A stretch of 62,879 nt of DNA, the filler included, from Globobulimina sp. (taxonomy: Eukaryota): the NCBI GenBank assembly GCA_003354225.1. It is 41 parts of 41 records of this genome, joined end to end, with 100 filler letters (N's around TTAATTAATTAA, not from the genome) between each part and the next. Parts side by side here need not be neighbours in the genome. Positions count along the whole stretch, not along the records: positions 47,630 to 49,064 come from PIVH01016719.1; 40 more parts are not named here. The stretch is one strand, 5' to 3'. Of the stretch, positions 46,841 to 49,164 are shown piece by piece. The translations under genes and the position numbers were made by a program. Within the stretch, counting starts at the first letter, position 1, and each line of letters begins with the position of its first letter. The notes beneath the pieces are model-generated. The model did no database searches. It was not told the origin of the DNA and saw only the letters and a list, made by a program, of their open reading frames with translations.

Positions 46841-47399
<559 letters not shown>

Positions 47400-47629: not shown

Positions 47630-48644
47630 TTTATTTTGTTTCTCTTTCAAACGCTTTGCAAACTCCATTTTTCTGTCATAACTTATATTTATTTCTCTTT
47701 CTGAATCTTTATCAATATATAATTTCTTTATTTCTTCACCTTTTTTATTTTTTTCCGTTTGATCTGAAAAGTTTTTGAATATTTTGAAATCTTTGTAATA
47801 TAAAGCTAATTCAGCACAAAATAGTTGCTTCATAAAAAGATGTAAATATTCAAGCGCGTCTTCGTCATTTAAGCAAGTTTCTAAATCATTAATATGGTCC
47901 ATCAACTGTTCCATTTTATTTTTTTGTATTTTACTATTAAAATCCTGCCCAATCATGATAGAAACAACGATTTCATACAAAGTGTTAAAGCAAAATCTTA
48001 TTCTTAAAGAATAATTTTCTTTAAATTCATCGCTCATTGTTTTGTGGAATGTAGCACCCATTTTTAGATAATACGCCAATGTAACACCCATAGTTTCATG
48101 TAACTTTCCCAATGTTGCTATTTTTAATAATATATTATATGAATTTGGTTTACTTACCGTCGAAACTAACCATCCAAACATGCCAAAGAATATTTTACTT
48201 TGTGTATTCATATCTTTTTTGGCAGATAAAAATAATGGTTGTGCTTCGGGAATTGCTTGAAATACATTTGTATAAAACTGCAATGCTAATGATTCATACT
48301 CATCATCTGACAATGTGTTAACATTTGACTGTATATGTTTTTATATTCGCATAGTACAGAAAGTTATTAACAGAAACACTTAGACATACCGCCCAGAAAC
48401 AATTCAATACGGAAATGCAATTGGCATAATCAGACTGTATTGCACCTTTTTCTTCATCATGGTGCAATTGTTTATTGTTTGTATTGATATTCATTTGCTT
48501 TAATAGTTGTTTTGATGGTTGATTGTTACCATACACTGCCAGTTGATATGCTGCAACTTCCTTTGAATAATCTTGTAAATCATTTGAACCATTTGAGTCG
48601 TTTGTTTTATTGTGTTTTGCGTTCTTGGATGAGATGAGACCCAT
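47630..48644 (-). CDS. N-myristoylated globin-RGS fusion protein, 3' partial
   Basis: MGLISSK start; intron 48329-48389; globin (LNCFWA, QFY, QPLF, NTQSKIF, LGKLHETMGV); RGS (LETCLND...LHLFMKQLFCAEL...IKKLYI...EINIS). Confidence 0.82.
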
Positions 48645-49164
48645 GTTTTTAAAATTGACTAAAACTTTTCGTATTCAAAAAAAACATACATCTGTGACTC
48701 CTTACTAGCTAGCGACTTGTGAAGATCTAGCTGTGTAGGTACATTACTCACAACTTATGTCATATCCAAAAACCATATTCCCCCGTTTTCCAAAAGAAAT
48801 GCCATATCAAAAACGAAAAGTTATTAATGGCCGCTATATAGAAGAAGAAACATATGAGGCAATATTGACTGAGGGTAAGAATGCTATCAAATCCCTGGCA
48901 TTTAGCAGCGTCCAGCAAGCATTATATTATGTGGTAAGTATGATTTTATGTCAATTGTGGGCGCCACATCAGAGACAATCATGAAAACATTCAATTATTT
49001 CATTGCATTGATGCTCGTATTTATTTTTCAAAGGAATATTAGCGCCCCGTTGGTAACCAGTATCNNNNNNNNNNNNNNNNNNNNNNNNNNNNNNNNNNNN
49101 NNNNNNNNTTAATTAATTAANNNNNNNNNNNNNNNNNNNNNNNNNNNNNNNNNNNNNNNNNNNN

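Follow-up and report, generated by a model that had tools for sequence, protein, structure and literature searches.

The window, which is the whole 62,879-base stretch of DNA analysed here, is from Globobulimina sp. (GenBank assembly GCA_003354225.1). It consists of 41 contigs of 1435–1437 bp that are sorted by length and glued together by N44-TTAATTAATTAA-N44 linkers. The contig at positions 47630–49064 carries a gene that encodes a globin domain followed by a regulator of G-protein signalling (RGS) domain. All features of this globin-RGS gene are on the minus strand. tblastn searches of the window with six members of the protein family have matches on this contig only, and the contig has no Rfam match at E ≤ 1. 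The contigs are unlinked, so the window neighbours of the globin-RGS gene are uninformative and it is unsafe to read gene context across a linker. An earlier note on this DNA (the original prediction) described the gene and its motifs at the correct positions, but overlooked the truncation of the gene, the glued contigs and the large family of paralogues.

Exon 1 (positions 48390–48644) has 85 codons, begins with MGLISSK and ends with NCFWA. It is defined by open reading frames (ORFs) and by tblastn matches of homologues P0006 and P0010 at 48575–48390. It contains the start codon, a low-complexity N-terminal region, the motif Y[AS]KEVAAYQxAVYxN as well as the globin's helix A, which ends in FW. 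The ORF at 48318–48674 has no in-frame ATG upstream of 48644. The 5' untranslated leader is at least 21 nt (positions 48645–48665), with 48665 being the start of a spliced contig from public run X2. The intron (positions 48329–48389) is 61 nt, has GT..AG borders and is in phase 0. Exon 2 (positions 47630–48328) is supported by an ORF, Pfam matches and contigs from public runs. It has 233 codons, is open at its 3' side at the contig end, and encodes the remainder of the globin, then a linker, then roughly two thirds of RGS.

The original prediction proposed that removal of the GT-AG intron joins two ORFs in frame, and this is borne out by three kinds of evidence. Contigs from public runs X2 and X6, which come from two studies, both join position 48328 to 48390 and omit the 61 nt. 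The X2 contig is 1184 nt with 0 differences to the window and the X6 contig is 1035 nt with 24 differences; both are taken, by inference, to be derived from cDNA. A contig from run X1, which holds 0.90 of the words of the stretch, retains the 61 nt. In addition, transcript-derived homologues align without a gap over the junction (NCFWA|SNVNTLSDDEY in the window, compared with TTFWENNINTLSDDEY), and tblastn of homologues matches the two exons in the correct order and register. Intron retention would give exon 1 a stop at approximately 48318, and the exon-2 frame is open for just 4 codons upstream of the acceptor. The X2 contig extends 21 nt upstream of the ATG and 209 nt past position 47630, which shows that the gene is truncated in the window and not in the organism. 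The locus is a real, spliced and transcribed foraminiferan gene whose 3' end is lost to the contig end; the break at 47630 takes away the final third of RGS. From the sequence and its homologues, the complete protein is predicted to have about 400 aa. It would begin with a Gly2 acylation signal, followed by some 70 aa of low-complexity spacer that includes one conserved motif, a 3/3 globin of haem type whose pocket has TyrB10 and GlnE7 and which carries the proximal His, a linker of about 15 aa and the RGS domain.

The Pfam Globin match covers residues 102–204 of the spliced product (positions 47972–48280). On the exon-2 product PF00042 gives an E value of 7.7e-7 and 30 bits (cutoff 22) at residues 17–119, profile positions 2–111 of 117. 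Positions 47885–47971 are assigned, from Pfam and predicted secondary structure only, to helix H at the end of the globin and to the short stretch that links it to RGS. The best matches among solved structures comprise 3s1i (E 2.8e-4) and 3ubc, bacterial single-domain globins deposited as 'hemoglobin-like flavoprotein', 3wfw, in which a related globin is joined to a Roadblock domain, and RGS10 and RGS2. A profile of the family matches RGS10 at an E value of 9e-6 and bacterial globin 3s1i at 1.5e-5. In the alignment to 3s1i, Tyr104, Phe118, Gln128 and His162 are opposite a Tyr, Phe, Gln and His, which we take to be B10, CD1, E7 and F8 of that globin. Alignment to 3s1i and 3ubc places Tyr104 at positions 48272–48274, Phe118 at 48230–48232, Gln128 at 48200–48202 and His162 at 48098–48100. 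The B10 Tyr, CD1 Phe, E7 Gln and F8 His of the original prediction are thus at the residues it had named. The window protein has no Pfam match to Protoglobin; PF11563 is found in three of ten relatives at 20–22 bits, under the cutoff of 25 and under the Globin score.

Conservation was counted in 55 aligned full-length rows of the family, which also served for the maximum-likelihood tree. Fifty-one rows have the proximal His and 3 have Tyr in its place; the LG..H motif retains its Gly in 53, and the helix A Trp is present in 50. CD1 is Phe in 29 rows (Leu 12, Met 7) and B10 is Tyr in 26 (Phe 18, Leu 7). E7 is Gln in 20 rows, and the other rows have Leu, His, Thr, Val or Phe. The haem-holding side of the pocket is constant, and the distal, ligand-facing side is variable among the paralogues.

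The RGS match covers the N-terminal 70%, approximately, of the domain (positions 47630–47884; PF00615 profile positions 2–82 of 117). On the exon-2 product the E value is 2.4e-6 with 28.4 bits (cutoff 23.9) at residues 149–229; the match stops at profile position 82 because the contig ends. The profile check with PF00042 and PF00615 that had been suggested for this protein therefore finds both domains above their curated cutoffs. A complete RGS domain is found in 8 of 10 rows of alignment A1 (best E 2.1e-12), and in P0006 it spans residues 266–375 with an E value of 3.2e-12. Position names in the RGS domain are taken from an alignment to RGS10. This alignment places Cys256, Glu258 and Leu259 at positions 47807–47818 and the Glu297-Ile-Asn299 loop, with Glu297 and Asn299, at 47687–47695. 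The Ser of FSEEN in RGS10 is replaced by Cys in 50 of the 55 rows, the second Glu is retained in 52, and 45 rows have the Asn of the loop corresponding to QVNV of RGS10. The RGS box of the original prediction, including Glu297-Ile-Asn299, is present. In RGS2, Cys and Asn at the first position and at the Asp position distinguish it from RGS4 and bias it towards Gq. The available text of PMC11061236 describes a Glu, Glu, Asn patch of an RGS protein that contacts G-alpha, and Glu258, Glu297 and Asn299 of the window protein match this patch.

The N-terminal MGLISSK (positions 48624–48644) is a candidate N-myristoylation signal. It has Gly2, a small residue (Ser6) at position 6 and Lys7, i.e., no Pro at position 7, in agreement with the PROSITE-type pattern. 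The Gly2/Ser6 consensus that had been proposed for this protein is present, and 38 of the 55 rows begin with MG. Twenty-two rows fit the PROSITE-type pattern. Eight of the 38 rows that start with MG have a Cys at positions 3–6, which would permit a second acyl group. Some of the rows that do not start with MG may be 5'-truncated transcripts. The linker from globin to RGS is fairly constant across the family, mostly 10–21 aa. The motif Y[AS]KEVAAYQxAVYxN is at spliced residues ~26–40 (positions ~48525–48569, minus strand), upstream of the globin, and is common to the window protein and its Bolivina/Nonionella orthologues. It has no Pfam match, and the N-terminal region that surrounds it is of low complexity.

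Word-indexed searches found only EukProt proteins, with 53–59% identity, in clusters labelled Bolivina argentea and Nonionella stella. Full-length homologues are 398–425 aa, begin with MG...SK and have a complete RGS domain. An exhaustive HMMER search of 1.84 billion representative proteins with the family profile gave 344 matches at E ≤ 1e-3, of which 78 reach E ≤ 1e-10 and 16 reach E ≤ 1e-30. Scoring with globin and RGS sub-profiles, which were derived from the family itself, was applied to 162 proteins (P0003–P0164), i.e., 150 listed matches plus a few earlier matches and cluster members. Both domains were detected in 80 of these, globin only in 39, RGS only in 41 and neither in 2. Among ten diverse members analysed by Pfam, nine have Globin and RGS at or above the cutoffs and P0054 has RGS only. 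Of 24 clusters that were looked up, 17 have foraminiferan labels (Ammonia sp., Elphidium margaritaceum, Bolivina, Nonionella), one is from Plasmodiophora brassicae and six are without a species label. The architecture thus occurs in transcriptomes that bear the labels of four further foraminiferan genera, which is the outcome of the transcriptome search that the original prediction had called for. The proteins P0025 (2461 aa, 14 matched stretches), P0090 (3690 aa) and P0125 (2951 aa) have many repeated globin-like or RGS-like stretches.

In the maximum-likelihood tree the window protein is sister to a Bolivina/Nonionella group of P0006, P0007, P0009, P0010 and P0011 (SH-aLRT 96). It sits within a set of many deep clades, and members from Bolivina, Nonionella or Ammonia are present again in several of these. 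The repetition of the same genera in deep clades shows that the family diversified before the window organism split from these rotaliid genera. The window gene is one orthologue group in a large family that spans Foraminifera. The sequence comparisons suggest that the two domains have been kept together under selection in this family. Proteins labelled Bolivina argentea and Nonionella stella share 90%-identity clusters, and some are near-identical (P0006/P0007, P0003/P0009, P0004/P0010, P0005/P0011 and P0038/P0165). The two transcriptomes may share material or cross-contaminate. Because of the shared clusters, Bolivina and Nonionella do not count as two independent species for any one sequence.

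A second arrangement is found in Plasmodiophora brassicae. P0167 is 334 aa and has RGS at residues 16–112 (40 bits) followed by Globin at 144–246 (46 bits). P0093 is 644 aa and has the RGS-globin unit twice, in tandem. Both are named 'Globin family profile domain-containing protein' by the source. The Plasmodiophora proteins end in a hydrophobic stretch that resembles a tail anchor or transmembrane helix, and their RGS loop reads EINIS, as in foraminifera. They are like the foraminiferan proteins in the two Pfam domains, the EINIS loop, a putative membrane anchor beside the globin and the rhizarian host. They differ in that RGS precedes the globin, a C-terminal hydrophobic helix is present instead of an N-terminal acylation signal, and P0093 is doubled. 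Globin, RGS and a putative membrane anchor beside the globin are therefore combined again, in another order, in a second lineage of Rhizaria. A homologue search with P0167 returned nothing at E ≤ 0.001. Two of the Plasmodiophora NCBI records are labelled '(mitochondrion)' by the source, which looks like an annotation slip.

Structure prediction with AlphaFold2 was carried out on shallow alignments of 10 and 9 rows, and the two models have a mean pLDDT of 43.6 and 48.5. These low values result from the 9–10 rows in the alignments and are not evidence of disorder. A Foldseek search of the PDB with the second model (mean pLDDT 48.5) has no match at E ≤ 0.001, just helical-bundle noise. ESM Atlas has no usable match to P0006 or P0167. 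A complex prediction of the P0006 globin (residues 96–246) with haem against the P0006 RGS domain (residues 258–385) has a score of 0.00 and gives no verdict either way.

The arrangement of domains resembles that of bacterial and archaeal globin-coupled sensors (HemAT, diguanylate-cyclase and kinase types), which also have an N-terminal globin, a short linker and a C-terminal signalling output. In those sensors the ligand state controls the output, and by analogy the same logic is proposed for the globin-RGS protein. The differences are the RGS output, a globin that is F-type-like and not of the sensor/protoglobin type that helps to define the class, the eukaryotic host and the N-acylation signal. 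A eukaryotic globin-coupled example, an adenylate cyclase, reportedly occurs in Leishmania. The RGS domain is also tied to a second G-alpha-regulating module in RGS12 and RGS14, and to a sensing module in the seven-transmembrane (7TM) RGS proteins of plants and Naegleria; in the protein described here the sensing module would be a soluble haem globin held by lipid and not a 7TM domain. As outputs of globin-coupled sensors, the accessible portion of a 2020 review (PMC7475203) gives MCP, kinase, diguanylate cyclase and adenylate cyclase, and in that portion there are 0 occurrences of 'RGS' and 0 of 'G protein'. RGS families of protists can be very large: PMC9283941 describes 79 RGS proteins, besides those of the 7TM class, in the genome of N. 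fowleri.

Two groups of animal globins are also relevant. In the text available from PMC4842972, ferric human neuroglobin binds G-alpha-i-GDP, acting as a GDI (guanine nucleotide dissociation inhibitor), and is thus a globin whose redox state reportedly controls a heterotrimeric G-alpha at the membrane. Neuroglobin differs in being a single-domain GDI that acts in trans, where the foraminiferan protein is a covalent fusion to a domain of GTPase-activating protein (GAP) type, and the sequence relation is weak (E 0.7). Globin X and C. elegans GLB-26 have a Gly2 acylation signal and proposed non-respiratory, redox or signalling roles, as far as the available sections of PMC3176823 and PMC3520999 describe them; they are without an output domain, whereas the foraminiferan protein carries RGS. 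Literature searches of full-text literature, by titles and abstracts, found no description of a globin-RGS fusion or of foraminiferan globins; most subscription papers (e.g., the 2013 'Microbial eukaryote globins') are outside that scope and an earlier mention is possible. The architecture is probably already in InterPro by automatic listing. The family appears to represent a eukaryotic globin-coupled design with an RGS output, in which the architecture is supported and the function unproven.

The fusion suggests that G-protein signalling may receive an input from gas or redox state. The reading that we favour, with a probability of about 0.45, is that of a lipid-anchored globin whose haem ligand or redox state tunes the action of RGS on G-alpha-GTP. 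The lipid anchor would hold the protein at the membrane, next to G-alpha subunits that are acylated. A change in haem ligand or redox state (O2, NO, CO, ferric/ferrous) would shift the globin helices, and the short linker would relay this shift to the RGS domain. Binding of RGS to G-alpha-GTP and its speeding of GTP hydrolysis would be altered, and oxygen or redox status would in this way tune heterotrimeric G-protein signalling. Haem binding, acylation, GAP activity, allosteric coupling and the physiological signal are what we infer from the sequence. The strong conservation of the Glu (52/55) and of the E-x-N Asn (45/55) argues for a working G-alpha interface. The accessible part of a paper on fusions of G-protein-coupled receptors with PIPK (PMC5784254) describes receptor-type genes of this kind in Reticulomyxa filosa, which bears only indirectly on the presence of a G-alpha in foraminifera. 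A broader proposal is possible but doubtful: that Foraminifera, and plasmodiophorids with the second arrangement, wired haem-globin gas or redox sensing into G-protein signalling through a diversified, lipid-anchored globin-RGS family. The pockets of the paralogues would be tuned to different ligands or O2 ranges, and each would switch off or hold G-alpha according to O2, NO or redox state.

Several observations weigh against a tuned RGS action of this kind. By its profile matches the window globin belongs to the ordinary (F-type-like) Globin family and not to the sensor (protoglobin-like) lineage. It is also divergent: Pfam Globin is found at E ≤ 0.01 in just 4 of 10 A1 rows and not in full-length P0006, and P0054, one of ten other relatives, has no Pfam Globin match. 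The distal residues vary across the family (E7 Gln 20/55, B10 Tyr 26/55), so members may differ in ligand and may not share one. In the RGS domain the Asn position of FSEEN is Leu in 23 of the 55 rows, Ile in 13, Met in 6 and Asn in only 4, and is Leu259 in the window; the original prediction noted 'EL' for 'EN' as a caveat, and it holds family-wide. The DSYSRF helix of RGS10 is NCF..F in homologues, with Asp and Arg replaced; in the window this helix is lost past the end of the contig. With Asn, Asp and Arg substituted at their contact positions, it is uncertain whether RGS has canonical GAP activity. According to the available text of PMC11061236, Arabidopsis RGS1 has Thr321 right after the contact residue Glu320, which indicates that Asn is not universal at this position in RGS proteins that pair with G-alpha, and that Leu is less damaging than it appears. 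As to transcription, the library kind of the spliced contigs is unrecorded (X2) or guessed to be RNA (X6), and none of the runs that hold the sequence is on record as RNA.

The same observations can be accommodated by other explanations. The globin may be the working part (NO dioxygenase, handling of O2 or reactive oxygen species, or electron transfer, as an F-type globin), with RGS and lipid merely targeting it to membranes or to activated G-alpha. This is consistent with the closest solved globins, which are bacterial, single-domain and flavohaemoglobin-like with the same Tyr/Gln pocket (3s1i, 3ubc, 3wfw, 1vhb, 2wy4), with membership in Pfam Globin and not Protoglobin, with the missing canonical contact residues of RGS, and with the N-acylated membrane globins with redox roles described in the accessible parts of PMC3176823 (globin X) and PMC3520999 (C. 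elegans GLB-26). We consider a targeting role unlikely, in that the Glu and E-x-N Asn of the RGS surface are retained in 52 and 45 of the 55 rows, no reductase partner or domain is present, and the short conserved linker suggests coupling. An explanation that is somewhat less likely again is that both domains are degenerate, i.e., a haem-less globin fold and an RGS-homology domain inactive on G-alpha form a scaffold of unrelated function. Axin, sorting nexins and AKAP10 have RGS-homology domains that do not act on G-alpha. The weak globin profile scores, the replaced Asn, Asp and Arg contact positions and the absence of a confident AlphaFold2 fold (from 9–10-row alignments) would agree with degeneration, but the proximal His in 51 of 55 rows and the nearly invariant LG..H..G[IV] are hard to explain without haem, and the window copy has every pocket landmark.

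RGS12 and RGS14, which have RGS plus GoLoco, offer a comparison for a bipartite regulator in which RGS acts on G-alpha-GTP and the globin, in one redox state, binds G-alpha-GDP as a neuroglobin-like GDI. Two independent domain orders in Rhizaria keep globin and RGS together, and the available text of PMC4842972 reports GDI activity of ferric neuroglobin towards G-alpha-i/o. The same text reports that zebrafish neuroglobin is without GDI activity, and neuroglobin is low among the solved matches (7ohd, E 0.7); a bipartite regulator is very unlikely. The assembly is extremely fragmented, and a chimeric contig or a false splice could have united unrelated genes. Both domains are within one exon, which excludes a chimeric join between them; the X1, X2 and X6 contigs all cover the domain boundary, and the same architecture is present in the transcriptomes labelled with four other foraminiferan genera. 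With the single exon, the homologues that span the junction and the spliced contigs, an artefact of assembly or annotation has a negligible probability and is rejected.

Benthic foraminifera are known from hypoxic and anoxic sediment. To our knowledge, it is largely unknown how protists sense O2 or NO and convert this to behaviour. If haem state does tune RGS action, the dozens of globin-RGS proteins would offer a concrete molecular path by which gas or redox state could reach G-protein signalling, and would make up a class of globin-coupled sensors that is eukaryotic and has a new output. Relative to the outputs named in the accessible portion of PMC7475203, RGS would add an output domain absent from that list, with an F-type-like rather than a sensor-lineage globin recruited. 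A covalent fusion in two domain orders, apparently under selection, would give independent genomic support to the proposal that globins and G-alpha regulators cooperate, and bears on neuroglobin and G-alpha-i. It would be a natural 'Rosetta stone' fusion, and globin-to-G-alpha coupling, in animals known only from work on neuroglobin, would be an ancient and selectable design.

Two other regions of the window contain ORFs. Positions 46853–47399 (plus strand), on the previous contig and unlinked to the globin-RGS gene, have two ORFs rich in EF-hand-like motifs; this pair presumably resembles a centrin/caltractin gene split by an intron. At positions 48727–49064 of the globin-RGS contig there are short contigs from run X7 (organism C) at a depth of up to ~730, some with loose ends that are adapter-like. 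The X7 run has zero coverage of the globin-RGS gene. A plus-strand ORF that runs from 48757 (MSYPKTIFPRF...) to a GT at 48934 has no Pfam or Rfam match. It may represent a neighbour with high expression and divergent transcription, some 110 bp away from where the globin-RGS gene starts.

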